Shown: in pieces, positions 3,120 through 64,000 of the stretch | Numbering within the stretch: position 1 is the first letter of the stretch | How the letters are laid out: each line of letters starts with the position of its first letter | IMG/VR virus record: IMGVR_UViG_3300032235_000467 | Source of the DNA: a virus | Reading direction: 5' to 3' (one strand) | DNA: 64,000 nt | Program-made: the position numbers and the translations under genes | Notes under the pieces: model-generated | Told to the model about the DNA's origin: nothing | The model's input: only the letters and a program-made list of their open reading frames with translations | The model's database searches: none

Positions 3120-3121
3120 AA

Positions 3122-4164: not shown

Positions 4165-4165
4165 C

Positions 4166-4363: not shown

Positions 4364-4378
4364 AAATAAAAAAAGGTT

Positions 4379-5005: not shown

Positions 5006-5008
5006 ATT

Positions 5009-5287: not shown

Positions 5288-5332
5288 AAATAAAGGTTAC
5301 GACATTAAATAACTAATTGATAAATTAATTTA

Positions 5333-6118: not shown

Positions 6119-6129
6119 AAAGGATAAAC

Positions 6130-8123: not shown

Positions 8124-8124
8124 A

Positions 8125-13926: not shown

Positions 13927-14258
13927 TGGGGGAGCAAGTAAACATAGTCAGAAAGATATATGGTAAAAATACATTTACAAATGTGGTAGATGTAGAGTTT
14001 AATCAATTAGTTCCAAAAGAAACTACTGATATAACACAAACTCCTGCGTCTGTAGACAGCTTCTTTAGTGATTACGATACTTTGTTTTACGATATTCCAC
14101 CTAGTGGATCTGAGAATTCTCATACCGAATTGGTAAGAAGAAGCGCAGAGTACATAGGTTTAAGTATAGATGATTTAAGAGAAGAGATATCAAATCTAAG
14201 AGATGAAAACGTGTCACTAAAGACACAGATAGTATCACTTACAAACCCGAATAAATAA
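13926..14258 (+). CDS. hypothetical protein with C-terminal coiled coil
   Basis: TAATG-coupled on both sides. Confidence 0.75.
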   Translation: MGEQVNIVRKIYGKNTFTNVVDVEFNQLVPKETTDITQTPASVDSFFSDYDTLFYDIPPSGSENSHTELVRRSAEYIGLSIDDLREEISNLRDENVSLKTQIVSLTNPNK

Positions 14259-48257: not shown

Positions 48258-48268
48258 TTATAAATAAC

Positions 48269-48877
48269 ATGCAAGTACTTACAGAATACCATCAGATACA
48301 ACTACCAAACCAGCTCCTAGAAGCATATCAGCCAGGTAAACCTATGATAATCCCAGGAGTGGTTATACAGCGTTCTAATGCTAAGAACAGGAACGGTAGA
48401 GTATACCCTGCAGACGTATTGAAAAGGGAGATAGATAAGTACAATGATACTATGGTTAAGACCAATCGTGCTTTAGGAGAACTAGATCACAGTGATTCTA
48501 ACGTAGTTAATCTAAAGAATGTATCACACAATATAAAGAAGATATACTGGAAAGGAGATGATGTATGTGGAGATATTGAAATACTTGATGGGGATGAGTT
48601 CCCAGCAGGCCGTATAGCCGCAGGATTGCTTCGTAGAGGCATTCCAGTAGGAATTAGCTCAAGAGGTATGGGTAGTGTACACGAGGGAAATGATGGTACT
48701 GTTACTGTTAATGACGATTTTAACCTTCTTACGTTTGATTTAGTATCCTTTGAGTCAACTCAAGGAGCTAATTTAAGTCTAAAAGAAGGGTATGAAGCAG
48801 CTAAAGCTTCTTATAATAATATTGATCGTATAGTTAAAGATTTAATTTGCAACAATACTGGCGTCTGCCATTGCTAA
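48269..48877 (+). CDS. prohead core protease (gp21-like)
   Basis: KNRNGRVYP, ALGELDH, VSHNI, VGISSRGMGS, FDLVS. Confidence 0.95.
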   Translation: MQVLTEYHQIQLPNQLLEAYQPGKPMIIPGVVIQRSNAKNRNGRVYPADVLKREIDKYNDTMVKTNRALGELDHSDSNVVNLKNVSHNIKKIYWKGDDVCGDIEILDGDEFPAGRIAAGLLRRGIPVGISSRGMGSVHEGNDGTVTVNDDFNLLTFDLVSFESTQGANLSLKEGYEAAKASYNNIDRIVKDLICNNTGVCHC

Positions 48878-48920
48878 TTAAAAAATATTTACAAAAAGAT
48901 TGGTTTTTATAATTTCTATA

Positions 48921-48928
48921 TATTTATT
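48921..48928 (+). promoter_or_regulatory. putative late promoter TATTTATT for scaffold-capsid operon
   Basis: Motif variant in the only long intergenic gap of the head module. Confidence 0.55.
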
Positions 48929-49030
48929 ATAGAAATATTCGCCTAATACTCTTTTTTTTATAAAGAGTTGAAATATAACAATTCTATTGCACCTCTAATA
49001 GGCGTAAATCCAAAAAAAAATTTTAAGGAA

Positions 49031-50053
49031 ATGAACACAAACTTGCTTAAAGAAGCAATCGCAGAAGCGGATGCTATCAAAAAAATGGCTATTGAAAACG
49101 CAAAGTCTAGTCTGAACGAAGCTTTTGACTCTAAAATCAAATCTATGATGGCAGCACGTCTTGAAGAAGAAGCTGAAGATTTTGATCTTGAAGAAGAGTA
49201 CGAAGAAGGATATGAAGACGATCAAGACGAAGCTAAACATGCTGAACCAGATGGTGACGAACCAGATGGCGATGAAGAGCCAATGAAAGAAAAGTATGAT
49301 GATGAAGAAGAAGAAGGAGCTGATGAAGCTTTTAATCTTGAGGCTATTCTAGCAGAACTCGAAGCCGGAGATGATAAAGATAAAGTGATGGAAAAGAAAG
49401 GTGAAGACGATGATGATGCTGAAGAAGAAGAAGATGACGAGCCTGCTAAAGAAGAAGAGCCTATGGATGAAGAAATCGATATTGCTGCACTTCTTGCTGA
49501 AATGGAAGATGGTGAAGATGATATGGATCCTGAAATAAAAGAAGAAAAAGATCCTGAAGAAGATGACAAAGACGAAGTTGCAACTCTTGAAGAAGAGATG
49601 ATGAGTCTTCTGGAAAAAATGAAGGAAAAGAAAATGGCTAAAATGAAGAAAAAAGAAGAAGACGAAAAGCCTGAATCTAAAGAACTTCAAGAAATCAAGC
49701 GTCAAGCTGCTGAGTTAGCTCAAAAGGTTAACGAAACCAATTTGATCAACGCCAAACTTCTTTATCTGAATAAAATTCTTCGCAAGTACAACTTGTCAGA
49801 ACAACAAAAGATTAAGGTTATCGGTGCTTTTGACAAAGCTCAAACTGTTAATGAATCAAAGATCGTTCACGAATCATTGGATCAAGCATTCAGTGTTAAA
49901 AACGATAACGTTAAATCCGGTCTTAAAGAATCTATCGGTTTCGCTTCTAGCGCAGCTGGTACTTCAACAAAGCGTGTTATAAATGAAGGCGTAGTTAGCG
50001 ATGTTGACAAACAAGTGTCAAGGTGGCAAAAACTTGCTGGTATAATCAAGTAA
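49031..50053 (+). CDS. prohead scaffold protein (gp22-like; start revised from 48968 to 49031)
   Basis: Highly acidic coiled coil between protease and capsid; LLKEAIAEA start; C-terminal RWQKLAGIIK. Confidence 0.88.
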   Translation: MNTNLLKEAIAEADAIKKMAIENAKSSLNEAFDSKIKSMMAARLEEEAEDFDLEEEYEEGYEDDQDEAKHAEPDGDEPDGDEEPMKEKYDDEEEEGADEAFNLEAILAELEAGDDKDKVMEKKGEDDDDAEEEEDDEPAKEEEPMDEEIDIAALLAEMEDGEDDMDPEIKEEKDPEEDDKDEVATLEEEMMSLLEKMKEKKMAKMKKKEEDEKPESKELQEIKRQAAELAQKVNETNLINAKLLYLNKILRKYNLSEQQKIKVIGAFDKAQTVNESKIVHESLDQAFSVKNDNVKSGLKESIGFASSAAGTSTKRVINEGVVSDVDKQVSRWQKLAGIIK

Positions 50054-50081
50054 TTTAAAAAACAAAAATAAAAATTAGAAA

Positions 50082-51713
50082 ATGAACGTACAATCTCTCT
50101 TAGAAAGTTCTAACCCCTACGCTTCCCAAATGACGGAAGCCCAAAGGTTGGTTAAGAAGTGGGGTGAAACTGGCCTTTTGGAAGGTAATGACCTTGCAAA
50201 GCAAGCATACGGTAAAGAGCGTATGGCTATCATCCTTGAAAACCAAGCTAAACAGCTTATGGTTGAGCAATCTCAAACTGGTACTGGTGGTACTTTTACC
50301 GTAGGTGCTGGTGAACAATGGGCTGGTGTAGCTCTTCCGCTCGTGCGTAAGATCTTCGCTGACATTTCTGCTAAAGAATTTGTTAGTGTACAGCCTATGA
50401 CCCTCCCTGCTGGTCTTGTATTCTTCCTTGAATTCAAGTATGGCAAAAACATCCCAGGTACTCCACAGCAAAATCGTTTTAGCGTTGGTGACAGCATGTA
50501 TGGAACAACCAATGTGAAAGATGTTGATCCTTCTGGTGGTTTGTATGGTGCTGGTCGCTTTGGTTATTCAATTAACGAAGCTTCTGCATCTATTACTTAC
50601 ACTATTACTAGTGCATCTGCTGCTGACGTGAATTTTAATTCACTATATAGTGCATCTGCTGCTGCTGGTCAATTGCGTAAGTTGTCTTTTGTTAATGCAT
50701 CTGTTACTGCATCTGGCATGGATACTAATGGTGTTCGTGGATTTATTGTAACTGGTAGCGGTGTTAACGAGTCTAACTTGTTTGCTGAGTTTACTTCTTA
50801 CAATGCTTCTTCAAATATCCTTTCTTTTGTAGTTAGTGGTTCTGCTGGACAGCTTGCTCTTGGAAGTGGTTCTGCTTTCCTTTTCTATCAAAAGCAACCT
50901 GCTGATAACAGCCGTGGTGACTTTGAAGATGCAGCATCTACTCCATTGACTGGTTCTAACTCAATCCCTGAGATCAACGTAGAAATGCGTTCTGAGGCAG
51001 TTGTTGCTAAAACTAGGAAATTAAAAGCTAAGTGGACTCCAGAATTTAGTCAAGATTTGAATGCATACCAATCTTTGGATGCTGAAGCTGAATTGACTTC
51101 AACTCTGTCTGAGTACATTTCTCTTGAAATCGACCTTGAGATCATCGACATGTTGATCCAAAATGCAAACACTACTGAATACTGGTCTGCTGCGAACAAT
51201 ACGTTCTACAATAAGGCAACTGGTGTTTGGAGCGCTCCTACAACTGGATTCTACAATACACAAGGTGGCTGGTTTGCTACATTGGGTACTAAGATCCAAA
51301 GCGTAGCTCGTACTATTCACAAGAAAACTCTCCGTGGTCAAGCTAACGTAATCATGTGCGGACCTTCTATCGCTACAATCATCGAATCTATCCCTGGCTA
51401 TGCCGCTGATACCGATGGTAGCAAAGAAGAATTTGCAATGGGTTCACACAAAGCTGGTCAGTTGAACAGTCGTTACAAAGTGTATGTTAACCCATACATG
51501 AATGAGAACACTCTTCTTTTGGCTTATAAAGGTAGCCAGTTCCTTGAAACAGGTGCTGTGTTTGCTCCTTATATTCCATTGATCATGACTCCTTTGTTGT
51601 ACGATCCAGAAACTTTCACTCCAAGGAAAGGTCTGATGACTAGGTATGCTAAGAAAATGTTGCGTGCTGAATTCTTCGGAAAGATAGCCGTAGCTGATTT
51701 GAACACTATCTAA
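50082..51713 (+). CDS. major capsid protein (gp23-like)
   Basis: VSVQPMTLPAGLVF, KTRKLKAKWTPEFSQDL, SLEIDLEII, AVFAPYIPL, FTPRKGLMTRYA. Confidence 0.97.
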   Translation: MNVQSLLESSNPYASQMTEAQRLVKKWGETGLLEGNDLAKQAYGKERMAIILENQAKQLMVEQSQTGTGGTFTVGAGEQWAGVALPLVRKIFADISAKEFVSVQPMTLPAGLVFFLEFKYGKNIPGTPQQNRFSVGDSMYGTTNVKDVDPSGGLYGAGRFGYSINEASASITYTITSASAADVNFNSLYSASAAAGQLRKLSFVNASVTASGMDTNGVRGFIVTGSGVNESNLFAEFTSYNASSNILSFVVSGSAGQLALGSGSAFLFYQKQPADNSRGDFEDAASTPLTGSNSIPEINVEMRSEAVVAKTRKLKAKWTPEFSQDLNAYQSLDAEAELTSTLSEYISLEIDLEIIDMLIQNANTTEYWSAANNTFYNKATGVWSAPTTGFYNTQGGWFATLGTKIQSVARTIHKKTLRGQANVIMCGPSIATIIESIPGYAADTDGSKEEFAMGSHKAGQLNSRYKVYVNPYMNENTLLLAYKGSQFLETGAVFAPYIPLIMTPLLYDPETFTPRKGLMTRYAKKMLRAEFFGKIAVADLNTI

Positions 51714-51733
51714 TCAGATGAGGAAATAAAATG

Positions 51734-51761
51734 AAAGAGCCGGGTTTATCCCGGCTTTTTT
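51734..51761 (+). terminator. intrinsic terminator after major capsid gene
   Basis: AGCCGGG-TTTAT-CCCGGCT followed by a T run. Confidence 0.88.
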
Positions 51762-51773
51762 ATTATTACAATC

Positions 51774-51781
51774 TATTTATA
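51774..51781 (+). promoter_or_regulatory. putative late promoter TATTTATA
   Basis: Immediately after the terminator, 12 nt before ATG 51794. Confidence 0.65.
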
Positions 51782-51793
51782 TAAAACTAGTTT

Positions 51794-52483
51794 ATGTCAT
51801 CAAATCATCACAAAGATCCCGTGTTTCAACAAAAAAAAATTCCTAAAAACCCAATCAAGTTTCAATTATCATTAAATGATGAACAGAAGGTTGCAAAAGA
51901 AAAGATAATAAACAGTGATATAGCTGTTATTAGAGGTAAAGCAGGTAGCGGTAAGTCGCTATTAGCAGCTCAAATAGCACTAGATATGTTGTTTAAAAAG
52001 GAAGTAGAGAAGATAATAATAGCCAGGCCTGCTATCACAGCTGGTGAACAGATTGGATTCTTACCTGGTACGAAAGATGAAAAGATGGCACCCTTTACTG
52101 CACCGGTATATGATAACATGTACAGGCTTACAGGTAAAGAAAAGATAGAAAAACTAGTAATGGAGGGAGAGATTGAGATTATCCCAGTAGGATTTCTTAG
52201 AGGATTCAACTTTAGTAACTGTATAGTTATTATTGATGAGGCACAAAACTGTTCTGAGAATCAATTAGAGTTGATTATGGGACGTTTGTGCATAGGATCT
52301 AAGATTATCATATGCGGAGATAGCGCACAGATAGATCTTAAGAGTAAGAAAGACTCAGGGTTTGACTTTATATGCAAACATATGAAAGACATCCCAGGAT
52401 TTAATATAATAACCCTACAAACCAACCATAGGCACCCTATAGTAGAGCCTATGCTGGCCGTATTTGAACAATACAGGAGTTAG
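51794..52483 (+). CDS. phoH: PhoH-family ATPase
   Basis: GKAGSGKS, IIIARP, GFLPG, FLRG, IIDEAQN, CGDSAQID, HRHP. Confidence 0.92.
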   Translation: MSSNHHKDPVFQQKKIPKNPIKFQLSLNDEQKVAKEKIINSDIAVIRGKAGSGKSLLAAQIALDMLFKKEVEKIIIARPAITAGEQIGFLPGTKDEKMAPFTAPVYDNMYRLTGKEKIEKLVMEGEIEIIPVGFLRGFNFSNCIVIIDEAQNCSENQLELIMGRLCIGSKIIICGDSAQIDLKSKKDSGFDFICKHMKDIPGFNIITLQTNHRHPIVEPMLAVFEQYRS

Positions 52484-52486
52484 CGA

Positions 52487-52500
52487 TATTTATATTTATA
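52487..52500 (+). promoter_or_regulatory. tandem putative late promoter (TATTTATA x2, overlapping)
   Basis: TATTTATATTTATA before ATG 52512. Confidence 0.6.
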
Positions 52501-52511
52501 AAGAATCATAA

Positions 52512-53735
52512 ATGGCAGGCCAAGTAGAAATACAGTATTACGACGCATCTATACCATTATTGCCAGTATCTGGTAATACACCTTTTGGGTACTATGATAG
52601 TGACCCACAATTTCAAGCAGATGGTCCAAAATTTGTAAAATTTGCATCTAGGAGATTAGGGTATCCTATCATGGAGATAGAGTTGCAGGATATTAACTTC
52701 TATTCTGCATTAGAGGATGCTGTATCTGCTTATGGTAAAGAGCTTTATGAATATAAGATTAGAGAAAACTACCTATCAATGGAGGGAAATCCTACCGGTA
52801 GTAATCTTAATAATGCTTTAATTCAACCGAACTTTACAAACGTAATGAGAATAGCTGCCGACTATGGCAGTGAAGTCGGTAGCGGAGGTAATGTACCTTA
52901 CTACACAGGTTCCATAAAATTGAGTGCAGGAGAACAGAAATATGACCTTAATGCATGGGCTAGCTCATCAGGAGTAGTACTTCCAGGGGATCAAATAGAC
53001 ATAAAAAGAATATTTTATGAAGCCCCACCAGCTATTGTAAGGTATTTTGACCCTTATGCAGGAACTGGAACTGGTCTTCAATCATTAATGGAAACTTTTG
53101 GGTTTGGTCAATTTTCACCTGGTATTAATTTTATGTTGATGCCTGTTTATTTTGATGTTCTTAAAATCCAAGCGATTGAATTTAATGATCAAATTAGAAA
53201 ATCAGCGTACACATTTGAAATACAAAACAATCAATTAAAAATATTTCCAATACCTACTTTTGATAAGAATCTCTATTTTACCTATGTGAAAAAATCTGAG
53301 ATGGGATCTTTGATTAGAGGAGGAGTTGCTGTCTCTGGATCCTCTAGTACAACAGTTACTACTATAGGTACAGGTCCTGGAAGCACAAATGTTATTACAA
53401 ATGTTAGCAACGTTCCATTTCGTAATATTGTATATAGTCAAATTAACGATATATTCAAAAAATGGATATTTGATTACGCTCTGGCAATAACTAAAGAAAC
53501 ATTAGGAAATATCAGAGGAGTATATAGTCAGATACCTGTTCCTGGAGCTGAAGTTACTATAAATGGACAGACTCTCATAGATCAAGCAAACAGTGAAAAA
53601 ACTGCTTTGGTTGAACAACTAAGAGGTACTTTAGATGATACATCACGTCAAAAGCAAATGGAGAAAAAATCCCAAGAAGCTGCTATGATGCGTGATACAT
53701 TTATTAATTTCCCAATGCCAATATACATAGCATAA
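52512..53735 (+). CDS. neck/head-tail adaptor protein (gp13-like)
   Basis: RRLGYPIMEIEL; WIFDYALAITKETLGNIRG..IPVPGAEVTING. Confidence 0.85.
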   Translation: MAGQVEIQYYDASIPLLPVSGNTPFGYYDSDPQFQADGPKFVKFASRRLGYPIMEIELQDINFYSALEDAVSAYGKELYEYKIRENYLSMEGNPTGSNLNNALIQPNFTNVMRIAADYGSEVGSGGNVPYYTGSIKLSAGEQKYDLNAWASSSGVVLPGDQIDIKRIFYEAPPAIVRYFDPYAGTGTGLQSLMETFGFGQFSPGINFMLMPVYFDVLKIQAIEFNDQIRKSAYTFEIQNNQLKIFPIPTFDKNLYFTYVKKSEMGSLIRGGVAVSGSSSTTVTTIGTGPGSTNVITNVSNVPFRNIVYSQINDIFKKWIFDYALAITKETLGNIRGVYSQIPVPGAEVTINGQTLIDQANSEKTALVEQLRGTLDDTSRQKQMEKKSQEAAMMRDTFINFPMPIYIA

Positions 53736-54124
53736 TGGTAAAATTAATCGACATATTAATTGAGGCTAGGTTTGATAAAAAAGAATCTATAAAGAAAACC
53801 TATCACACTTATTCTTGTGTATTTCTAGTAAAGTTTAAAAAGAAATTTAATAGAGTACAAGCAGTAGAAAGAGTAAGGGGTATTAAAACTGTAACTATTG
53901 TAGATCTAAGAGGTGACGAAAGATTAGATAAAATTAATAGGACTCTCACAGACTATGAATATAGTACAATAGAAGTTAAATTTATCACCAATAAAGATCC
54001 TAAAAACCATTTAGAATATATTAAAAAAGCTATGGTTGGTTCTGATAAAAAACAAGGTATTGATAATATTGTTGGAATAGTTGCGGCTAAACCTAAGTTA
54101 GATACTTTAATACAACTAGATTAA
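53735..54124 (+). CDS. hypothetical protein with capsid-targeting-like leader
   Basis: MVKLIDILIEA; TAATG-coupled between the neck genes. Confidence 0.7.
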   Translation: MVKLIDILIEARFDKKESIKKTYHTYSCVFLVKFKKKFNRVQAVERVRGIKTVTIVDLRGDERLDKINRTLTDYEYSTIEVKFITNKDPKNHLEYIKKAMVGSDKKQGIDNIVGIVAAKPKLDTLIQLD

Positions 54125-54612
54125 TGGCACTATACGGCGGCATACGAGCAAGATCCTTTTTCAGACATCACAGCAGACAAATCGTAAATAGGATTGTTGC
54201 TGAGGAGGTACTTTATTATAAGCTGTCTTTGTCCGAAACAAGGTATAATATATACGGGGAATCTAAAAATAAAATGTATGAACAACCTATTTTAATAGCT
54301 TGTTTTTACGCAGTAGATGATCAAGTATCAGAAGACCAAACTTTTGGTAAATCTATAGCACAAACAGCAGAATTTAGATTTTTAAGAGAGGATTTAATAG
54401 ACATAAATCTAATTATGGAGCCAGGGGATATAGTATGTCTCAAAGAATCTTACTACGAAGTAGATCTTGTAGTAGAAAATCAATTTATTATGGGCAAGAA
54501 CCCAGAATATTCTCTTGAATCTGATTTGGAAAAGTACGGTGAGTCTTGGTCTATAAAATGTAAATCTCATCTTACCGGTGTAAATAAATTAAATCTTATA
54601 AAAACTACATAA
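54124..54612 (+). CDS. neck/head-closure protein (gp14-like)
   Basis: VLYYKL...NIYGES..K...EPGDIV...YYEV; position after gp13-like gene. Confidence 0.75.
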   Translation: MALYGGIRARSFFRHHSRQIVNRIVAEEVLYYKLSLSETRYNIYGESKNKMYEQPILIACFYAVDDQVSEDQTFGKSIAQTAEFRFLREDLIDINLIMEPGDIVCLKESYYEVDLVVENQFIMGKNPEYSLESDLEKYGESWSIKCKSHLTGVNKLNLIKTT

Positions 54613-54614
54613 AA

Positions 54615-55874
54615 GTGCCTCTACAAAAACGCGTCATAAAGAATAGACCAAAAACTGAGGCTGAGATACTCAATTCTCAGATAGATCCTTATATAGAAAC
54701 TAGCAGTAAGCCATCTATACAGGATTATAAGAGAGGTGAGGATAATTCTTTACGTGGTGAAGAGATAAAAAACATATCTGTAGGTCTTGAAGATATTGAT
54801 AGTGCTATATTATACTACTTTGATGAAGTAATAAAGCCATATGTAATAAACGAAGGATCTAAGCAAAATATTCCTGTGATATTTGCCGATGCTGAGAGAT
54901 GGAAAACAGCTCAAAAAGATGGCGTTTACAGGGATAAAGACGGTAAGATTATGTTACCTATAATAACTGTAAAAAGAGACAATCTAGAGCGCAATAGATC
55001 TCTTACAACAAAGCTTGATGGCAACAAAGTAAACATATATCAGAATTACGAGAAGAGGTATACTAGAAAAAATCAATATGATAATTTCTCAGTGCTAACA
55101 AACAGAGCCCCAGTAAGAGAATTTTATAATGTAGTGGTTCCAGACTACTATACACTGACGTATAGCTGTAACATATATGTATCTTTCTATGAAGATTTGA
55201 ATAAAATAATAGAAGCTATAGGATTTAGATCAGATGCTTATTGGGGATATCCTGGTAAATTTTTATTCAAAGCAAGAATTGATAACTTCCCTATCACAAA
55301 TGAGATAACAGAGGGGGCAGATAGGCGCTTTTTAAGTACCTTTACTCTTGTAATGAATGGGTACCTCACTCCAAACAATATAGACAAGTTTTTAGCCTCT
55401 GATGCGTTTAAATATAGATCTAAAACGCAGATATTATTTACCATGGAAGCATCAGGACAGAACGTAGAAGACGTAAGATACTCTACAGGAACTTCCAAAC
55501 CTTCAGTTGCTAAAACATCGTACATACCAGAGGGAGTAAATGTGACAAATACAAATCAAATAAATGTATTAGATATAGCTACAATAGCATATTTAAATGC
55601 ATCTACAACAATTAAAGGAAGTGATTCTTTAGTTACTTCAAATACTGTAACATTCTTAAATACTACAATATTACAACCGCCTGCATCATCTCAACTACCT
55701 CCTACATCCGTTAATGACTTTAAATTTTTTGTCAATGGAGTATTTGTAGATGCTACAAACATAATATCGTTCGTTCAATCAGGAGCAAATACAGTACTTA
55801 CAGTAAATACGGCAACTTTAGGATATACATTTGATAGTGCAGATGAAATAATAGCAGTAGGTAAATTTGAATAA
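54615..55874 (+). CDS. tail terminator/sheath stabiliser (gp15-like) with C-terminal extension
   Basis: IPVIFADAERW...IMLPIITVKR...VPDYYTLTY...NKIIEAI. Confidence 0.7.
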   Translation: MPLQKRVIKNRPKTEAEILNSQIDPYIETSSKPSIQDYKRGEDNSLRGEEIKNISVGLEDIDSAILYYFDEVIKPYVINEGSKQNIPVIFADAERWKTAQKDGVYRDKDGKIMLPIITVKRDNLERNRSLTTKLDGNKVNIYQNYEKRYTRKNQYDNFSVLTNRAPVREFYNVVVPDYYTLTYSCNIYVSFYEDLNKIIEAIGFRSDAYWGYPGKFLFKARIDNFPITNEITEGADRRFLSTFTLVMNGYLTPNNIDKFLASDAFKYRSKTQILFTMEASGQNVEDVRYSTGTSKPSVAKTSYIPEGVNVTNTNQINVLDIATIAYLNASTTIKGSDSLVTSNTVTFLNTTILQPPASSQLPPTSVNDFKFFVNGVFVDATNIISFVQSGANTVLTVNTATLGYTFDSADEIIAVGKFE

Positions 55875-55876
55875 CT

Positions 55877-56110
55877 ATGTCATTAATTAGATCAAAGCAG
55901 CTTAGTAAAAATATGACTGGAGACTTTACGTTTTCCGGTAAAACAACCTTTGTACAAACTTCTTCTACACAACCTGCAGTAGTTATAAGCGGTTCTCAAG
56001 AAGTGGTTCCAACATCTATATACTCTGGATCTATATACATAGCAGGACTAGGAACCTTTGCTGATACAGGAAGCAATGAAGTTATTGATCTTGGAGATAA
56101 TTCTTTTTAG
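55877..56110 (+). CDS. small virion-associated protein
   Basis: MSLIRSKQL start; SGS/TGS motifs; IDLG near C-terminus. Confidence 0.65.
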   Translation: MSLIRSKQLSKNMTGDFTFSGKTTFVQTSSTQPAVVISGSQEVVPTSIYSGSIYIAGLGTFADTGSNEVIDLGDNSF

Positions 56111-56120
56111 GTATAATTGA

Positions 56121-56128
56121 TATTTATA
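56121..56128 (+). promoter_or_regulatory. putative late promoter TATTTATA
   Basis: Intergenic, before ATG 56165. Confidence 0.6.
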
Positions 56129-56164
56129 TCTAACAGAGATTACAACAAAAAATTAAAAGCATAA

Positions 56165-59100
56165 ATGGCTACTTGGCTCCAGATAAATCCTCAGGATGGA
56201 AATGCTACATATAATAATGTTACGGTATACAATACGATCGTAGCTAACTCTATTAGTGGTTCTTTTACTGGGTCTTTTAATGAAAATGATCCTATATTTA
56301 CTGAAAAGTCTGCATCATTAGCCACCACAGGCTCTAATATTTTTATCGGTAATCAAACTATCACTGGATCTTTAATATCATCTGGAGCTGTATATTTCCC
56401 AGCAATAACTAATGCCTCTCAATCCGGAATAGTAGTAGTTGACCCAGCAACAGGACAGTTATATTATACTACAGGATCAATTACAGGAGGTGCTTCAGGA
56501 TCAATGGGACCTTCAGGATCTTCTGGTACTAGTGGTACTGCAGGTAGCAGTGGCACATCAGGAACATCTGGTATTACCGGTGATAGGTATTTAACCAGTT
56601 CTACAAGTTCTATAACATTAGGATTAAGTGGTAGTATTACTGTAGGTACAAATTTAGCTTATTCAACGGCCCAGACTGCAATAATAGCATACGATCTCAC
56701 CAATTACCAGGAAGTACCTGTAATATCATATAATCCTTCTACCGGAGTGTTAGTATATGGCACACCAATTACTGTCGTAGGAAGTGGAACATACTCAACT
56801 TGGCAAGTAAACCTATCGGGAGCTAGTGGAGGAGATGGATCCTCTGGAACTTCTGGATCATCAGGTAACAGCGGTACTTCAGGATCCTCAGGAAGTAGTG
56901 GATCTACAGGAACTTCTGGATCTACAGGTACTAGCGGTTCATCTGGCTCTACTGGATCTTCAGGATCTAGCGGTACTTCAGGTACCTCTGGAACTAGTGG
57001 ATCAACTGGTACTTCAGGTTCTACTGGAACTAGCGGAAGTTCAGGTTCTACTGGAACGTCAGGCACTTCTGGGTCAAGCGGTACATCAGGAACAACTGGA
57101 TCATCGGGCAGCGCAGGATCCTCTGGTACTAGCGGTACTGCTGGATCAAGTGGAAGTTCAGGTTCTTCCGGATCTACAGGATCTTCAGGATCTACAGGAA
57201 CAAGTGGCTCTTCAGGTACATCAGGTACTAGTGGCACCTCAGGAACTTCAGGATCTAGTGGATCCTCTGGAAGTGCTGGAACTAGTGGTACAAGCGGATC
57301 TTCTGGATCTACAGGTAGTAGTGGATCTACGGGCACATCTGGATCAACTGGTACATCTGGTAGTACAGGAACTAGCGGAACAGCAGGGTCTTCTGGATCA
57401 ACCGGTTCATCCGGTAGTAGTGGGTCATCCGGTAGTAGCGGTTCTTCGGGTTCTACTGGATCTTCTGGATCAAGTGGTACTGGGTTCAATACTATCAACA
57501 GTCCAGCTATAGGGAGAATTTTATTAGCAGACAACTCAACTAATGCAGCTACTGCATCTGTGAGTATGAGTTTTAATAATGGAATTCTTTTATTAACTGG
57601 AAGTATTATCGCTACAGGTAATATCCAAGCTAATACTCTTATAGTACAGACCATAACTTCTTCAGTAGTATACTCTAGCGGATCTAATATATTTGGTAAT
57701 GCATTAACAAATACCCACCAGTTTACTGGTTCAGTATTAGTAACGGGTTCTTTATCCATAAGAGATTTAGCCTTAAGTAGTAGCGCTACTAGATATGTAG
57801 TATCAGATCTTGATGGTAGATTATTTTATACTACTGCAAGCGCAGCAGGATCCTCAGGAACTGCTGGTACTAGCGGTACTTCTGGCTCCTCAGGTTCTTC
57901 AGGGTCTAGCGGCAGTGCTGGGTCTAGCGGATCCTCAGGAACTGCTGGTACTAGCGGTACTTCTGGTTCAACAGGTTCTTCAGGATCTACAGGTTCATCA
58001 GGTAGTAGCGGTTCTTCCGGTTCAACTGGCTCCTCTGGTTCTAGTGGAACTTCCGGAACAAGTGGCACAGCAGGATCAACTGGCTCATCAGGTAGTTCTG
58101 GTTCTACAGGTACTTCTGGATCAGCTGGTTCATCTGGTAGTAGCGGCTCTTCCGGTAGTAGTGGGTCCTCAGGTAGTACTGGTTCATCTGGTAGTACAGG
58201 AACTAGTGGATCGTCTGGTTCTACAGGATCAAGTGGATCTTCTGGTACAGCTGGTACATCCGGTTCTACAGGTTCATCAGGTTCTAGTGGAACTTCCGGC
58301 ACAGCTGGCACTAGCGGTACAACTGGTACTTCAGGTTCAACAGGAACTAGTGGTTCTACAGGAACTTCAGGATCATCAGGTAGTTCCGGCTCTTCAGGAT
58401 CTTCTGGAAGCACAGGATCATCAGGCACTAGCGGTACAACTGGATCATCTGGTTCATCTGGTTCGACAGGAACTAGTGGCTCGTCAGGTTCTTCAGGTAG
58501 TGCTGGCTCTTCAGGTTCTACAGGAACAAGCGGAACATCTGGTACTGGATTCAATACTATCAATAGCCCAGCTATAGGAAGGATATTATTAGCTGATAAT
58601 AGTACTAATGCTGCAACAGCATCAGTTAGTATGAGCTTTAATAATGGTACTTTATTGATTACAGGAAGTATTACTGCTACAGGTAATATCCAAGCTAATA
58701 CACTAATAGTACAGACTGTATCATCCTCAGTAGTATATTCTAGCGGCTCTAATATATTTGGTAATAACTTATCAAACACCCATCAATTTACCGGAAGTGT
58801 TCAAGTTACAGGTTCAGTATCTATAAAAAACTTAAGCCTTAATTCTGGCTTATCTCAATTTGTAGTGGTAGACCCTGTTACCGGTCAATTGTATTATAAT
58901 AATTCAGGAGCAGCTGGTTCATCAGGCTCTAGCGGATCTTCCGGTACTTCAGGTTCTACAGGAACATCTGGCAGCTCAGGTTCAACTGGTACTTCTGGTT
59001 CTACTGGTACATCCGGTACGTCAGGTTCAACAGGATCTTCTGGATCAACCGGATCCTCCGGCTCATCTGGATCAACTGGCTCTTCTGGTAGCACTGGTAC

Positions 59101-62100
59101 TAGTGGATCATCAGGTACAACCGGATCCTCAGGAACTTCAGGATCTAGCGGTTCTGCAGGATCCTCTGGTTCTACTGGTACATCTGGATCTAGTGGTTCA
59201 ACTGGCTCAAGTGGTAGTACTGGTACAAGTGGTAGCGCAGGATCAAGTGGAAGCAGCGGATCGTCTGGTACATCTGGGTCCTCTGGTTCAACTGGCTCAA
59301 GTGGGTCTTCAGGATCAACAGGAACTAGCGGCTCCTCCGGCTCTTCAGGAAGCTCAGGTACGTCAGGTAGTACAGGTACTAGTGGATCATCAGGTAGCAG
59401 TGGTTCATCTGGATCTAGCGGTAGTACCGGTACAAGTGGTACTGCAGGTACATCAGGTAGTGCAGGTTCAACTGGTACAAGCGGATCTACAGGTACTTCT
59501 GGTTCATCTGGATCAACTGGTACCTCTGGAAGTACAGGGTCCTCTGGTTCAGCTGGTACATCAGGTAGTAGCGGTACAACTGGAACATCCGGATCCTCTG
59601 GTTCAACAGGTACATCAGGTAGTACAGGTACTAGTGGGTCATCAGGTAGTACAGGATCTAGCGGATCTACTGGTTCATCAGGATCAAGCGGATCTTCAGG
59701 TACCACTGGATCTTCTGGAACATCAGGATCTGCAGGTAGATCTGGTGATAGATATTTAACAAGTTCCACAGGATCGGTAACTTTAGGATTAAGTGGATCT
59801 ATTACTGTAGAACCAGGATTGGCGTATTCTACTGCACAGACAGCAATAATATCTTACAATATAAGCAATTATCAGGAAGTACCTGTAGTATCATATAATC
59901 CTTCTACAGGGGTATTAACATACGGTACACCTATTACTGTTGTGGGTTCTGGTACTTATTCAAGCTGGCAAGTAAACTTAGCTGGAGCTAGTGGAGGAGA
60001 TGGATCTTCCGGAACATCTGGTTCATCTGGTTCATCAGGACAGAACGGAAGCTCAGGCACTTCTGGACAGAATGGTTCATCTGGCTCATCAGGATCTACA
60101 GGGACTAGTGGTACATCAGGCACATCTGGTTCTACAGGGACTAGTGGTTCCTCCGGTTCTTCCGGATCAAGCGGCTCTTCTGGAAGTGCAGGCTCTTCAG
60201 GTACTACTGGATCATCCGGCACATCTGGGTCAACTGGTACCTCAGGATCAACAGGAACTAGCGGATCATCTGGCTCTACTGGAACATCAGGTAGTACAGG
60301 TACTAGTGGCACCTCAGGAACTTCAGGTTCTTCAGGCAGTAGCGGATCAAGAGGTAGCTCCGGATCCTCAGGATCAACAGGCACTTCTGGTACATCAGGA
60401 ACAACAGGTACTAGCGGTTCTACTGGTAGCTCAGGTAGTTCAGGATCCACAGGTTCAAGCGGTTCCACAGGAACTTCTGGCAGCTCAGGAAGCACAGGTA
60501 CTAGTGGATCTACTGGAACATCTGGTTCCTCAGGCTCAGCAGGATCCTCTGGTTCGTCTGGTACATCAGGTAGTACAGGAACATCCGGCACTTCTGGTAC
60601 ATCCGGCTCATCAGGATCTACTGGTACATCTGGCTCTACCGGGACATCAGGTAGTACAGGTACATCCGGCTCATCAGGATCTACTGGATCCTCTGGATCT
60701 ACTGGTTCATCTGGGTCAACTGGTACTTCTGGCTCTACTGGTACAAGTGGCAGCAGTGGTTCATCTGGTTCATCAGGGTCTAGTGGCTCATCTGGCTCTA
60801 CTGGTACAAGCGGATCAACAGGAACTTCCGGATCAACAGGAACATCAGGTTCTAGTGGAAGTACGGGTACATCAGGTTCTAGCGGTACTGGATTCAATAC
60901 TATACATACTCCTGCTATAGGAAGAATACTGTTAGCAGATAATAGTACTAACGCAGCTACTGCTTCTGTAAGTATGAGCTTCAATAATGGCGTATTATTG
61001 ATTACAGGTAGCATTACTGCCACTGGAAACATTCAAGCTAATACACTGATAGTACAAACAGTAAGTTCATCAGTAGTATACTCTAGCGGATCTAATATAT
61101 TTGGCAATAGCTTGTCCAATACTCATCAATTTACTGGATCTATACTAGTTACAGGATCTTTATCTATAAAAGATTTAGCCTTAAGTAGTAGCGCTACTAG
61201 ATATGTAGTATCAGACCTTGCTGGTAAATTATTTTATACCACTGCTAGTGCAGCAGGAACTTCAGGTACAACAGGAACTTCAGGAAGTTCTGGATCTTCT
61301 GGAAGCAGTGGCTCAACAGGAACCTCAGGCACCTCTGGTTCTACTGGTACTTCTGGATCTTCTGGTTCAGCAGGTTCATCTGGAAGCAGTGGTTCAACTG
61401 GAACTTCTGGTTCAACAGGCACTAGTGGTTCAACTGGAACTTCTGGAAGCACCGGAACTAGTGGTTCAACAGGATCTTCTGGATCCTCTGGATCAGCAGG
61501 TTCTAGCGGAAGCACGGGTACTAGTGGAACATCAGGTACCTCTGGTTCTTCAGGTAGTGCCGGCTCAAGTGGTTCTACTGGTACATCAGGAAGTACTGGT
61601 ACATCAGGATCTGCAGGATCTTCTGGCTCTTCTGGTTCTACTGGTACATCAGGAAGTACAGGAACTAGCGGTAGTTCTGGTTCAACTGGTACCTCAGGTA
61701 CTTCTGGATCTACCGGTACATCTGGAAGTACGGGAACTTCCGGATCAACAGGAACTTCAGGTACTAGCGGAAGTACTGGTACCTCTGGATCAAGTGGAAC
61801 AGGGTTTAACACTATACATACTCCTGCTATAGGAAGGATATTGTTAGCTGATAACAGCACAAATGCAGCTACTGCATCTGTGAGTATGAGTTTTAATAAT
61901 GGTATTTTGCTTATAACAGGTAGCATTACTGCTACTGGCAATATTCAGGCTAACACCTTAATAGTACAAACAGTAAGTTCTTCAGTCGTATACAGTAGTG
62001 GTAGTAATAGATTTGGAGATGCTTCAAATGATACACATGAATTTACAGGTAGTGTAAAAATAACTGGCTCAATAGCTGTTAGAGACTTAGCTGTAAATGC

Positions 62101-64000
62101 AGGATTAACTAGATTTGTAGTAGTTGATCCAACAACAGGTCAATTATATTATAGAACAAGTGGTGCAGACGGGTCATCAGGCTCTTCAGGAAGCTCAGGT
62201 TCAAGTGGCTCATCAGGCTCTACTGGTACATCTGGTTCTACAGGAACATCAGGTAGTACTGGTACATCTGGAAGTACTGGAACATCAGGTACATCTGGAA
62301 CTAGTGGATCAGCAGGATCCTCTGGATCAGCAGGTTCTAGCGGAAGTACAGGAACTTCAGGTAGTACAGGTACTAGTGGTTCCGCAGGAACTTCAGGTTC
62401 GTCTGGATCAACTGGTACTTCTGGCACTTCTGGTAGTACTGGTTCATCAGGATCTACTGGAACAAGTGGAACTTCAGGATCATCAGGATCAAGAGGATCT
62501 TCTGGTTCCTCCGGTTCTTCCGGATCAAGTGGCTCTTCCGGATCTACAGGATCTTCAGGAAGCACTGGAACTAGCGGTAGTTCTGGATCAACAGGAACTT
62601 CTGGTTCCTCCGGCTCTACTGGTACATCAGGAACCTCCGGTAGCACTGGTTCATCAGGCTCTAGCGGAAGCACTGGTACAAGTGGATCAACCGGTACTTC
62701 AGGTTCATCTGGAAGCACAGGCACTTCAGGAAGTACAGGAACTTCTGGTACATCCGGCTCATCAGGTAGTGCTGGCTCAAGTGGTTCTTCCGGTTCTACT
62801 GGTACCTCTGGATCTACTGGTTCATCAGGTAGTACAGGTACTTCAGGGTCAAGTGGCTCAACAGGTACTAGTGGTTCTACTGGTACATCAGGTAGCACAG
62901 GATCATCTGGTTCAACAGGTACTAGTGGTTCTACAGGAACGTCTGGAAGTACTGGTACTTCTGGATCTACTGGTACTTCTGGTTCAAGTGGTACTGGATT
63001 TAATACTATACATACTCCTGCTATAGGAAGGATATTGTTAGCTGATAACTCAACTAACGCTGCAACAGCGTCAGTTAGTATGAGCTTTAATAATGGAATT
63101 CTATTAGTAACTGGAAGTATTACAGCTACTGGAAACATTCAAGCAAATACTTTAATTGTACAAACAGTAAGCTCATCAGTAATATACAGCAGCGGTAGCA
63201 ATAGATTTGGAGATGCTATAAACGATAGCCATGAATTTACAGGCAGCGTTAAAATATCAGGGTCAATAGCAGTTAAAGATATAACATTAAGTGCCGGATT
63301 AACTAGGTTTTTAGTAGTAGATTCAACAACAGGACAATTTTATTATAGGACAAGTGGTGCAGATGGTTCAGCAGGAAGCAGCGGTTCATCAGGATCTTCT
63401 GGGTCAACTGGCACTTCTGGGTCTAGCGGCTCTACTGGTTCCTCAGGTTCTACAGGTACTAGCGGATCAACAGGTACTTCAGGTAGTACAGGTACTTCAG
63501 GCTCTACTGGTACCTCTGGCTCAAGTGGATCTTCTGGCAGTGCAGGATCTAGCGGCAGTACTGGTACTTCAGGTACAAGTGGATCAACAGGATCTTCTGG
63601 ATCTACTGGAACATCAGGTTCTTCAGGCAGCACAGGTACTTCTGGTTCAACTGGTACTTCAGGTAGTACCGGTACATCAGGAAGCAGTGGGTCAACAGGC
63701 TCCTCCGGTTCTACAGGTACTTCTGGATCTACAGGTACATCAGGTAGCACAGGAACATCTGGCTCAACAGGAACATCAGGTTCCACAGGTACTTCAGGCA
63801 GCACTGGTACCTCTGGCTCCACAGGAACTTCTGGTAGTACAGGAACTTCTGGTAGTACAGGAACTTCCGGCTCAACTGGTACCTCTGGGTCTAGTGGACA
63901 AACTGGAGCAGCAGGATCATCTGGAACTAGCGGAACAGGGTTTAACACCGTTGTAAACTGGACTAATAATAGAGTACTTACATCATATACATCCGCTAAT
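56165..64000 (+). CDS. giant Ser/Thr Gly-X-Y (collagen-like) fibre protein, >2612 aa, truncated by window end (not in ORF track)
   Basis: ATG 56165 MATWLQINPQDG...; same frame at 63998; eight G-[ST]-[STA] tracts alternating with repeated globular domains; absent from track because no stop is in the window. Confidence 0.9.
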   Translation, partial: MATWLQINPQDGNATYNNVTVYNTIVANSISGSFTGSFNENDPIFTEKSASLATTGSNIFIGNQTITGSLISSGAVYFPAITNASQSGIVVVDPATGQLYYTTGSITGGASGSMGPSGSSGTSGTAGSSGTSGTSGITGDRYLTSSTSSITLGLSGSITVGTNLAYSTAQTAIIAYDLTNYQEVPVISYNPSTGVLVYGTPITVVGSGTYSTWQVNLSGASGGDGSSGTSGSSGNSGTSGSSGSSGSTGTSGSTGTSGSSGSTGSSGSSGTSGTSGTSGSTGTSGSTGTSGSSGSTGTSGTSGSSGTSGTTGSSGSAGSSGTSGTAGSSGSSGSSGSTGSSGSTGTSGSSGTSGTSGTSGTSGSSGSSGSAGTSGTSGSSGSTGSSGSTGTSGSTGTSGSTGTSGTAGSSGSTGSSGSSGSSGSSGSSGSTGSSGSSGTGFNTINSPAIGRILLADNSTNAATASVSMSFNNGILLLTGSIIATGNIQANTLIVQTITSSVVYSSGSNIFGNALTNTHQFTGSVLVTGSLSIRDLALSSSATRYVVSDLDGRLFYTTASAAGSSGTAGTSGTSGSSGSSGSSGSAGSSGSSGTAGTSGTSGSTGSSGSTGSSGSSGSSGSTGSSGSSGTSGTSGTAGSTGSSGSSGSTGTSGSAGSSGSSGSSGSSGSSGSTGSSGSTGTSGSSGSTGSSGSSGTAGTSGSTGSSGSSGTSGTAGTSGTTGTSGSTGTSGSTGTSGSSGSSGSSGSSGSTGSSGTSGTTGSSGSSGSTGTSGSSGSSGSAGSSGSTGTSGTSGTGFNTINSPAIGRILLADNSTNAATASVSMSFNNGTLLITGSITATGNIQANTLIVQTVSSSVVYSSGSNIFGNNLSNTHQFTGSVQVTGSVSIKNLSLNSGLSQFVVVDPVTGQLYYNNSGAAGSSGSSGSSGTSGSTGTSGSSGSTGTSGSTGTSGTSGSTGSSGSTGSSGSSGSTGSSGSTGTSGSSGTTGSSGTSGSSGSAGSSGSTGTSGSSGSTGSSGSTGTSGSAGSSGSSGSSGTSGSSGSTGSSGSSGSTGTSGSSGSSGSSGTSGSTGTSGSSGSSGSSGSSGSTGTSGTAGTSGSAGSTGTSGSTGTSGSSGSTGTSGSTGSSGSAGTSGSSGTTGTSGSSGSTGTSGSTGTSGSSGSTGSSGSTGSSGSSGSSGTTGSSGTSGSAGRSGDRYLTSSTGSVTLGLSGSITVEPGLAYSTAQTAIISYNISNYQEVPVVSYNPSTGVLTYGTPITVVGSGTYSSWQVNLAGASGGDGSSGTSGSSGSSGQNGSSGTSGQNGSSGSSGSTGTSGTSGTSGSTGTSGSSGSSGSSGSSGSAGSSGTTGSSGTSGSTGTSGSTGTSGSSGSTGTSGSTGTSGTSGTSGSSGSSGSRGSSGSSGSTGTSGTSGTTGTSGSTGSSGSSGSTGSSGSTGTSGSSGSTGTSGSTGTSGSSGSAGSSGSSGTSGSTGTSGTSGTSGSSGSTGTSGSTGTSGSTGTSGSSGSTGSSGSTGSSGSTGTSGSTGTSGSSGSSGSSGSSGSSGSTGTSGSTGTSGSTGTSGSSGSTGTSGSSGTGFNTIHTPAIGRILLADNSTNAATASVSMSFNNGVLLITGSITATGNIQANTLIVQTVSSSVVYSSGSNIFGNSLSNTHQFTGSILVTGSLSIKDLALSSSATRYVVSDLAGKLFYTTASAAGTSGTTGTSGSSGSSGSSGSTGTSGTSGSTGTSGSSGSAGSSGSSGSTGTSGSTGTSGSTGTSGSTGTSGSTGSSGSSGSAGSSGSTGTSGTSGTSGSSGSAGSSGSTGTSGSTGTSGSAGSSGSSGSTGTSGSTGTSGSSGSTGTSGTSGSTGTSGSTGTSGSTGTSGTSGSTGTSGSSGTGFNTIHTPAIGRILLADNSTNAATASVSMSFNNGILLITGSITATGNIQANTLIVQTVSSSVVYSSGSNRFGDASNDTHEFTGSVKITGSIAVRDLAVNAGLTRFVVVDPTTGQLYYRTSGADGSSGSSGSSGSSGSSGSTGTSGSTGTSGSTGTSGSTGTSGTSGTSGSAGSSGSAGSSGSTGTSGSTGTSGSAGTSGSSGSTGTSGTSGSTGSSGSTGTSGTSGSSGSRGSSGSSGSSGSSGSSGSTGSSGSTGTSGSSGSTGTSGSSGSTGTSGTSGSTGSSGSSGSTGTSGSTGTSGSSGSTGTSGSTGTSGTSGSSGSAGSSGSSGSTGTSGSTGSSGSTGTSGSSGSTGTSGSTGTSGSTGSSGSTGTSGSTGTSGSTGTSGSTGTSGSSGTGFNTIHTPAIGRILLADNSTNAATASVSMSFNNGILLVTGSITATGNIQANTLIVQTVSSSVIYSSGSNRFGDAINDSHEFTGSVKISGSIAVKDITLSAGLTRFLVVDSTTGQFYYRTSGADGSAGSSGSSGSSGSTGTSGSSGSTGSSGSTGTSGSTGTSGSTGTSGSTGTSGSSGSSGSAGSSGSTGTSGTSGSTGSSGSTGTSGSSGSTGTSGSTGTSGSTGTSGSSGSTGSSGSTGTSGSTGTSGSTGTSGSTGTSGSTGTSGSTGTSGSTGTSGSTGTSGSTGTSGSTGTSGSSGQTGAAGSSGTSGTGFNTVVNWTNNRVLTSYTSAN
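56498..63937 (+). repeat. 9-nt-period Gly-X-Y tracts interleaved with domain A (x2, ~80 aa) and domain B (x5, ~120 aa)
   Basis: A at ~56581 and ~59746 (DRYLTSST...WQVNL); B at ~57482, 58547, 60890, 61802, 62996 (GFNTI..PAIGRILLADNSTNAATASVSMSFNNG). Confidence 0.92.

Follow-up and report, generated by a model that had tools for sequence, protein, structure and literature searches.

The last 7.8 kb of the 64,000-nucleotide stretch of viral DNA analysed here (IMG/VR record IMGVR_UViG_3300032235_000467, below called the window) hold the 5′ part of a giant fibre gene, at 56165..64000 on the + strand, whose product is built mostly of Gly-X-Y repeats of serine and threonine with hardly any proline or charge. 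We consider it reasonably probable that this first 7.8 kb of the gene encodes a giant modular homotrimeric virion fibre with collagen-type helices, stabilised by Ser and Thr and used for host capture. The kind is a known one, a collagen-like phage fibre with a chaperone-type C-terminus; what sets this one apart is the chemistry of the tracts. The DNA comes from a T4-type myovirus of fresh water, uncultured, whose relatives include Flavobacterium phage immuto (Immutovirus) and Microcystis phage Mel-JY01.

The open reading frame (ORF) begins with ATG and, in an ORF listing that admits open ends, continues for 2,612 amino acids (aa) to the 3′ edge of the window, without a stop codon in the translation of all 2,612 codons. 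The default listing hides the gene because it omits frames that run off the end of a sequence. Serine (868 residues, 33%), glycine (659, 25%) and threonine (468, 18%) dominate the composition, with 19 prolines (0.7%) and 65 residues of Asp, Glu, Lys and Arg together (2.5%). Counting as a tract each maximal (G-nonG-nonG)n run of at least five triplets, we find eight, which in order have 11, 71, 77, 94, 98, 60, 92 and 64 triplets, for a total of 567 triplets (1,701 residues), or 65% of the visible fibre residues. Ser and Thr fill 95% of the X and Y positions, and the triplets are GSS (194), GTS (174), GST (142), GSA (22), GTA (9) and GTT (9). Inside the tracts there is one Pro and about 0.8% charged residues, and neither Lys-Gly-Asp (KGD) nor Lys-Gly-Glu (KGE) is found in all 567 triplets. 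Gly occupies every third residue for up to 98 triplets and is never found at X or Y, and none of the seven long tracts contains a register break between its flanking domains. The initial annotation, made from the letters alone, had described a frame of more than 2,612 codons with roughly 570 triplets in eight tracts and almost no Pro or charge, and on each of these counts the present figures agree with it. Pfam Collagen (PF01391) matches the ORF in 26 stretches with 723.6 bits (E 1.2e-223, cut-off 27.2), a score inflated by compositional bias, and it is the sole Pfam family found there at E ≤ 0.1. The G+C content over the ORF, 0.42-0.47 as compared with about 0.33 elsewhere, is raised because of the codons used.

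The segments that interrupt the tracts are ordered domains rather than spacers. The tracts were delimited by run counts and the domains by alignment, and all lie on the + strand. The N-terminal domain A (residues 1-108; 56165..56488), recognised by its match to the N-terminus of the related protein P0003, closes with GIVVVDPATGQLYY before tract 1 (11 triplets; 56489..56587), the sole tract with a Pro. There follow the first copy of domain B (83 aa; 56588..56836), a predicted small beta-barrel, tract 2 (71 triplets, of Ser, Thr and Ala only plus one Asn; 56837..57475), the first copy of domain C (124 aa; 57476..57847), a fibre-shaft module also picked up by profile search, tract 3 (77 triplets; 57848..58540), the second copy of C (122 aa; 58541..58906), and tract 4 (94 triplets; 58907..59752). 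The second copy of B (83 aa; 59753..60001), with 79.5% nucleotide identity to the first, leads into tract 5, the longest (98 triplets; 60002..60883). From there on tracts alternate with copies of C: the third copy (124 aa; 60884..61255), tract 6 (60 triplets; 61256..61795), the fourth copy (122 aa; 61796..62161), tract 7 (92 triplets; 62162..62989), the fifth copy (122 aa; 62990..63355) and tract 8 (64 triplets; 63356..63931). The last 69 nucleotides (nt), 63932..64000, encode the first 23 residues, from residue 2590 (GTGFNTVVNW...), of a sixth and divergent C-type domain, whose start resembles the C-domain variants of P0042 and P0032; the 3′ end of the gene lies outside the window. Each long tract ends at GTGFNT, where a C domain starts, or at G-D/R-R-YLTSS, where a B domain starts, and domain A and each copy of C end with a VVVDPxTGQLYY-like motif directly before the next tract.

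The ORF is a real coding gene under purifying selection. The five copies of domain C, compared over the first 300 nt, are 73-81% identical in DNA, and over the same 100 codons 77-91% identical in protein, with 35-46 synonymous vs 9-23 non-synonymous codon differences per 100 codons between any two. The ORF contains no exact DNA repeat of at least 50 nt, 3 of 4,756 distinct 36-mers recur across the tracts, and the hexapeptide GSTGTS, which occurs 108 times, is written by 99 different 18-mers. Since the differences between copies are mostly synonymous and exact repeats few, the repeats must be old and kept at the protein level, and are not the result of recent DNA amplification.

The same numbers speak to whether the repeats could be an artefact, with their length or order inflated or made chimeric by short-read assembly of low-complexity DNA. 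We regard this as very unlikely: besides the scarcity of exact repeats, each domain copy has its own DNA sequence, the frame stays open across all junctions of tract and domain, no in-frame stop (which the initial annotation had named as a refutation) interrupts any of the repeats, and homologues of 1,231-1,978 aa with the same module order are found elsewhere. A second assembler, Logan, also yields identical pieces. Its contigs of run X1 contain 92% of the sampled words and match eight listed pieces of the window, with 2 differences in the piece 55000-56346 and 0 in the other seven; one of them, a contig of 2,369 nt at 57937-60305, joins tract 3, the second copy of C, tract 4, the second copy of B and the start of tract 5. 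The suspicion of an artefact nevertheless draws on the fact that Logan contigs break in several tracts and that none covers the whole ORF, that the tracts are matched by thousands of foreign contigs at 90-95% identity, and that the related contigs G001 and G002 end within collagen-type frames. Two further points count against taking the assembled gene at face value: run X1 may be the source sample and hence not independent, and among the matches listed no Logan contig bridges every tract (the gaps include 57571-57937 and 61840-62443), so that single tract lengths rest on the original assembly. In the sister sample X2, which holds a variant strain, both indels inside the ORF are whole Gly-X-Y triplets, in-frame deletions of 9 nt at 59654 in tract 4 and of 18 nt at 63821 in tract 8. 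Short pieces outside the tracts are also present in two freshwater metagenome runs from other studies, some with 0-5 differences and others with 10-38. The freshwater runs X3 and X6 show a very high summed depth over the tracts, which was set aside, as it comes from many foreign contigs at 90-95% likeness and is no evidence on the window phage.

We also note that the contig ends of G001 and G002 (L008 713-5113 and L007 12647-18886) both terminate inside open frames of collagen type. Assembly in this phage group may therefore often break off within such genes, leaving fibre repertoires under-recorded.

Domain A matches the N-terminus of the 520-aa P0003 of contig L003 (phmmer 4.8e-56), whose distal part differs from the window fibre and has a PKD domain, and the first ~40 residues also resemble the N-terminus of P0002 of contig L004 in a by-eye line-up without an alignment score. 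It is presumed to be the virion-anchoring domain. A tblastn search of the phages collection gave no match for domain A, and for domain C a single weak one, to a 'structural protein' of Mel-JY01; domains A, B and C searched alone against Pfam and PHROGs gave nothing. The two copies of domain B (residues 142-224 and 1197-1279) are 84% identical in protein, and its AlphaFold2 (AF2) model is all-beta, with a predicted local distance difference test (pLDDT) of 82.8 and a predicted template modelling score (pTM) of 0.70. Foldseek returned no match to this model at E ≤ 0.001; the closest structures by VIA-align are domains of phage baseplate, tail-tip and tailspike proteins, the best being a domain of the JBD30 baseplate protein (Z 8.4), at Z values of 7-8.4 that are borderline and common. 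For a phage-tail beta-barrel these neighbours are no more than a hint. The initial annotation had called all the punctuating domains beta-rich, which stands for B as predicted, and is not shown for C, where the monomer model is poor.

Domain C is present in five copies of 122-124 aa (70-90% identical in protein). Profiles of C and B against PDB sequences gave nothing significant. Searched against 1.84 billion representatives, the profile of C matches 5,215 proteins at E ≤ 1e-3, many of which have more than one copy. When the best 24 of these matches were scanned, Peptidase_S74 was found in 8 and Collagen in 1. A search of the ESM Atlas returned solely unnamed viral clusters and Collagen/Peptidase_S74 clusters.

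The profile of domain C also led to two IMG/VR contigs, L003 and L004, that share the gene order of the window: capsid, PhoH, adaptor, a 162-aa gene, a 418-aa gene and then the fibre. Their fibres are syntenic homologues of the window gene. In L004 the homologue, P0002 (1,978 aa), has Ser/Thr tracts (260 triplets), one B, one C and an unrelated insert, and its C-terminal part consists of GIGTTSP-type repeats followed by Peptidase_S74 (8.3e-15). In L003 the locus is split in two, the 520-aa P0003 with the same first 108 residues, and the 1,231-aa P0004 with Ser/Thr tracts, B, C and a Peptidase_S74 end (3.8e-13). The 418-aa gene beside the fibre is highly conserved in the relatives, and a 77-aa ORF of the window is also present in L004 at 6428-6661, in the same place and near-identical by eye. 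The window fibre gene lies in a virion structural module of a tailed phage, and its product has a conserved N-terminus and distal parts that vary relative to L003. Conserved 418-aa and 77-aa neighbours next to a rebuilt fibre are what is usually seen with fibres for host recognition. Immediately after the complete homologue in L004 (12655-16076, + strand) stand three consecutive Laminin_G_3 (ConA-like lectin) genes, which are candidates for distal adhesins or fibre accessories.

Because the complete syntenic homologues end in Peptidase_S74, the fibre is best read as a homotrimeric, beads-on-a-string virion fibre. The role of Peptidase_S74 is to align three chains in register, after which it is probably removed by cleavage. 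By analogy with the relatives, the window fibre would be a parallel homotrimer folded from a C-terminal chaperone beyond base 64000, where its C-terminus lies; PF13884 (Peptidase_S74) is not among the matches in the 2,612 visible residues.

Whether the chains then wind around each other is a separate matter. From the pattern of their residues we infer that the tracts may form a collagen triple helix. The triplet G-T-T is five-fold depleted in them (9 observed vs 51.8 expected, with 0 of 2,000 shuffles as low), and T-G-T, in which a Thr at Y precedes one at the following X, is enriched two-fold (112 observed vs 51.1 expected), with T-G-S and S-G-T both depleted. The same bias in G-T-T and T-G-T is seen in P0002, P0004 and P0156. 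Since the Gly periodicity is unbroken, the grammar is position-specific and the length variants are whole triplets, the tracts point to a defined, register-dependent structure and not to a loose spacer. The Y-Gly-X position is the site of inter-chain Lys-Asp/Glu contacts (PMC11923368; this and the other papers cited here are used in excerpt).

A loose spacer is what the tracts would be if they were not triple helices and served as flexible, heavily O-glycosylated mucin-like segments, making the fibre a glycoprotein 'brush'. We think this unlikely. Low-complexity sequence rich in Ser and Thr is the classic carrier of O-glycans, there are no Pro, hydroxyproline (Hyp) or charge pairs to hold the tracts, the AF2 confidence is low for the tract flanks, and the same phage encodes a true mucin-like Thr-Pro protein beside its glycosylation cassette. 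Disorder, however, needs no Gly at every third residue over 60-98 unbroken triplets and would not favour length variants of whole triplets. It is also at odds with the avoidance of G-T-T and the pairing in T-G-T, which are kept in four proteins of three phages, and with the flanking domains on both sides of the tracts, which belong to a family ending in a trimerising chaperone.

Another fold, with the tracts as antiparallel polyglycine-II (PGII) bundles or as a beta-solenoid, is highly improbable. PGII bundles are known from the snow-flea antifreeze protein and from some phage adhesin tips. PGII, too, is marked by small side chains and a Gly at every third residue, and the stabilising imino acids are absent, but such bundles need short segments joined by turns, and here 60-98 triplets run on without a turn-like break or a Gly-Gly pair. 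Matches to Pfam Collagen moreover run along the tracts, and a trimerising C-terminal chaperone suits a parallel three-chain helix.

Several observations weigh against the trimeric collagen-type fibre that we prefer. All known sequence-encoded stabilisers of the triple helix are absent from the tracts (one Pro, zero KGD or KGE), and Lys-Asp/Glu salt bridges have been argued to be general, viruses included, with KGD making up 13% of viral triplets (PMC11923368). The AF2 monomer model of domain C with its tract flanks, from a 28-row alignment, is unusable (pLDDT 63.9, pTM 0.28); so poor a model would be expected of an intertwined trimeric domain and proves nothing. The Peptidase_S74 end of the window fibre, finally, is taken from the relatives only, as the window lacks the C-terminus.

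If the collagen-type fibre is nonetheless correct, the C-terminus would carry GIGTTSP-type repeats and Peptidase_S74, the latter setting three chains in register. Each tract of 60-98 triplets (~17-28 nm) would wind into a collagen-like triple helix with a trimeric domain as a clamp at either end, giving a beaded filament about 0.5 micrometre long. The rise of a triple helix is about 0.29 nm per residue. Applied to 1,701 residues it gives ~0.5 micrometre, so the earlier length estimate was correct if the tracts are triple-helical. Stability would come from the end clamps, from a hydration network of Ser and Thr with Thr paired across Gly (S-T-G-T-S), and probably also from Ser/Thr O-glycosylation by phage GT4/FkbM and TibC/Aah-like enzymes of the kind that flank the fibre genes of the relatives. 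The fibre would be anchored by its N-terminus to a conserved part of the virion and would act as a long-reach host-capture (adsorption) fibre, with distal modules swapped between related phages.

Glycosylation of the fibre by phage enzymes is plausible from the gene content. The initial annotation had tied the fibre to a cassette at 23.5-27.8 kb of the window, which comprises a PF11397 GlcNAc-type transferase (8.3e-60), a weak GT4-like ORF, an FkbM methyltransferase and a UDP-galactopyranose mutase (Glf). A nearer candidate substrate exists for this cassette, because a Thr-Pro protein adjoins it both in the window and in G001. In the window this is a 686-aa ORF (21449-23509, + strand), directly upstream of the PF11397 gene, in which a mucin-like Thr-Pro tract of ~300 residues lies between a globular N-terminal and a Cys-rich C-terminal part; in G001 a PT-rich protein (L006 1-1428) likewise precedes the PF11397 gene. 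The fibres of the relatives are flanked by other enzymes. Beside the fibre genes we find a GT4+FkbM fusion in L003 (13482-15443) and L004 (18000-20366), and in G001 and G002 a fusion of GT4 with TIGR04414, a TibC/Aah-like O-heptosyltransferase (271 and 275 bits, cut-off 200). In both relatives the GT4+FkbM and GT4+TIGR04414 fusions lie between the homologue of the window fibre and further fibre genes with Ser/Thr collagen tracts, namely P0156 (1,467 aa) and, where the contigs end, two open frames (1,467 and 2,080 aa). The link of the fibre to the cassette at 23.5-27.8 kb is therefore not upheld, and if the fibre is glycosylated it is probably by a different enzyme set.

We also looked at how often such enzymes and fibres go together within the DNA retrieved from IMG/VR. 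Loci with a TibC-like gene have tracts of Ser and Thr only in 12 of 54 cases and other Gly-X-Y tracts in 7. Among 66 fibre loci with domain C, a TibC-like gene is present in 4 of the 15 with Ser/Thr tracts and in 3 of the 51 without (odds ratio 5.8, Fisher p 0.04). This p value flatters the case, since the loci are related and many flanks are cut, and the association is suggestive only. The other side of the count tells against a sugar-stabilised fibre: within the DNA retrieved, 35 of the 54 TibC-like loci show no Gly-X-Y tract, and 11 of the 15 Ser/Thr-collagen loci no TibC-like gene. The target of the TibC/Aah-like enzymes could also be the Ser-rich shaft domains and not the tracts, as these enzymes are named for strand-loop-strand beta-helix substrates.

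The findings on the cassette also decide how much is left of a collar or head fibre whose folding depends on it, the picture that the initial annotation had drawn. We now rate it as quite unlikely. The fibre gene does follow homologues of neck and tail-terminator genes, which fits a collar; the cassette begins with a strong PF11397 match and includes Glf and FkbM; and presence and absence agree in part, G001 having Ser/Thr fibres together with PF11397 and the complete immuto genome being without matches to either PF11397 or Pfam Collagen. Mel-JY01, however, has collagen-type matches without PF11397, the Thr-Pro-rich protein flanking the cassette in the window and G001 is a closer substrate, and the enzymes beside the fibre genes of both relatives are of the TibC-like/GT4/FkbM set. 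The homologues, moreover, resemble receptor-binding fibres, with a Peptidase_S74 end and, in L004, ConA-like lectin genes downstream; C-terminal repeats with Peptidase_S74 are typical of receptor-binding fibres and spikes. In T4, the whisker gene wac lies beside genes 13-15. It is in gene position alone that the window fibre resembles wac, whose product, the collar-whisker protein fibritin (Wac), has a coiled-coil shaft with a C-terminal foldon; the C-terminus of the window fibre is beyond the window. For the site of attachment, gene order slightly favours the neck or upper tail over the baseplate.

Collagen-like repeats are known in phage fibre proteins (PMC3368898, PMC7029224, PMC10202952). 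The closest described in these excerpts are the EPclA-type prophage fibres of E. coli O157:H7, which also have Gly-X-Y tracts between trimerising non-collagen domains and no hydroxyproline (PMC3368898, PMC11923368). EPclA, however, is stabilised by Pro at X and has ~22% charged residues (PMC11923368), as against one Pro and 0.8% charge in the window fibre, which also has far more triplets, in many clamped segments. Sugar is the other described solution. Thr glycosylation, an alternative stabiliser of the triple helix (PMC11923368), turns (Gly-Pro-Thr)10 from a coil into a triple helix (Bann 2000, cited in PMC11923368), and natural precedents with glycosylated Thr are Riftia and BclA (Mann 1996 and Daubenspeck 2004, cited in PMC11923368). 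In bacterial collagens X is typically Pro and Y typically Thr, and BclA is glycosylated (PMC8968730). Riftia cuticle collagen and BclA are like the window fibre in having Thr in place of Hyp, a Thr sugar that is proposed or shown to be stabilising, and glycosyltransferase genes nearby (PMC11923368, PMC8968730). Their repeats retain Pro, in the excerpts for instance as Gly-Pro-Thr, whereas in the window fibre X and Y are both Ser/Thr, with Ser dominant, and the candidate enzyme is a TibC/Aah-type transferase with a putative sugar.

The enzymes have their own precedents. The O-heptosylation systems TibC-TibA and Aah-AIDA-I of E. coli resemble the loci of G001 and G002, where TIGR04414 relatives above the equivalog cut-off stand beside fibre genes; the E. 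coli substrates are autotransporter passengers, whereas the candidate substrates in phages are fibres, and the enzyme, located in the relatives, is fused to GT4. Exact-word searches of the open-access literature found no paper on TibC-type enzymes in phages, and none describing collagen-like phage repeats of Ser/Thr only or without proline. O-glycosylation of virions is documented for mycobacteriophages (Freeman 2023, cited in PMC12619734), where phage glycosyltransferases likewise modify the phage's own structural proteins. There the glycans are described on the C-terminal tails of capsid and tail-tube subunits, as an immune shield (PMC12619734), whereas the target proposed here is a collagen-type fibre, with a possible structural role.

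The Peptidase_S74 end (PF13884, 'Chaperone of endosialidase'), which the syntenic homologues of the window fibre share, implies a parallel homotrimer folded from the C-terminus. Familiar proteins with this end are the K1F endosialidase, the T5 L-shaped fibre and the GA-1 neck appendage. The shafts of classical members are triple beta-helices or beta-solenoids, in contrast to the half-micrometre of collagen-type tracts in the window fibre, whose own C-terminus lies outside the window.

The window fibre is a member of a recurrent, unnamed class in uncultured phages, and not the largest. A word-based search with P0001, in which the 8,000 candidates sharing most words were scored (1,436-4,571 aa), gave 74 matches at E ≤ 1e-10 among these candidates, nearly all of them unnamed metagenome proteins and many with Peptidase_S74. 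Nineteen of the 74 large homologues have at least 50 triplets with Ser+Thr of at least 85% and Pro below 1%, the largest of the 19 having 100 triplets. With seven long tracts alternating with seven folded domains, the window fibre is the most elaborate case among those compared here. Separately, two IMG/VR loci reached by way of their TibC-like gene, L037 and L040, have on the minus strand open frames (at least 3,086 aa and at least 2,455 aa, respectively) with 877 and 726 Gly-X-Y triplets; these are made of Ser, Thr and Asn (GTN/GTS/GSS), many in N-G-T/S strings that resemble sequons, and each frame is less than 10 kb from a TibC-like gene.

The neighbourhood of the fibre gene is that of a T4-type phage. 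Upstream lie the large terminase, a T4-type portal, prohead protease, Gp23-type capsid protein, PhoH, a head-tail adaptor and a 419-aa protein with a weak match to gp15 (tail sheath stabiliser), and a baseplate block (gp25-like, wedge) is at 9.9-12.2 kb. Identity of the capsid protein is 54.8% with its counterpart in Flavobacterium phage immuto and 49.9% with the one in Microcystis phage Mel-JY01, and a megablast of 48000-57000 against the phages collection gave no match. In immuto, the stretch from the 419-aa gene's homologue to the tail sheath gene includes several genes annotated as fibre-like. The 77-aa ORF of the window (55877-56110, + strand), which separates the gp15-like gene from the fibre gene, belongs to no assigned family and could encode a fibre-associated or adaptor protein. 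The window has 24 copies of the T4 late-promoter motif TATAAATA vs 12.2 expected, with none on the + strand just upstream of the fibre ORF. At 56130-56167 there is no obvious Shine-Dalgarno sequence before the fibre ATG (AAAATTAAAAGCATAAATG). The lack of one is a property of Bacteroidota and would agree with a host of that type, as would the fact that the nearest cultured relative infects Flavobacterium.

A 1,813-aa ORF (14258-19699, + strand) after the baseplate wedge genes, without a Pfam or PHROGs match, may be a second large fibre or a baseplate protein. In Mel-JY01 (L002), the 'structural protein' with the weak domain-C match has after it, within 3065-8430, a protein of 1,226 aa whose annotation is FkbM methyltransferase and, at a greater distance, a cytidylyltransferase-like gene, another neighbourhood of a fibre with sugar enzymes. 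The Pfam Collagen matches of this genome are on the + strand at 29-2170, where the record annotates minus-strand genes.

The stability of collagen is today put down to Pro and Hyp or to charge pairs, and in a few instances to glycosylated Thr in repeats that contain Pro. In the window fibre and its relatives, long natural helices would do without any of these features. Only tentatively do we go on to suggest that many uncultured phages use triple helices free of imino acids and of salt bridges, held together by a Thr-Gly-Thr code, O-glycans from TibC-like/GT4/FkbM enzymes and trimeric clamps every 60-98 triplets, to build capture filaments of at least 0.5 micrometre. If true, this would add a third way of making collagen stable, by sugars and clamps, and a natural exception to the proposed universal salt-bridge folding code. 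The grammar of the tracts is simple, GSS/GST/GTS with Thr paired across Gly, and it is easily tested with peptides. If the tracts fold, they provide a minimal, hydroxylation-free collagen scaffold together with a candidate set of enzymes for its 'sweet' stabilisation; if they do not, strict Gly-X-Y periodicity can be selected for another reason. Glycosylation of the fibre would be a second case of a phage glycosylating its own virion proteins, and a modular capture fibre of ~0.5 micrometre in freshwater myoviruses of Bacteroidota or cyanobacteria type would extend the known range of adsorption devices.

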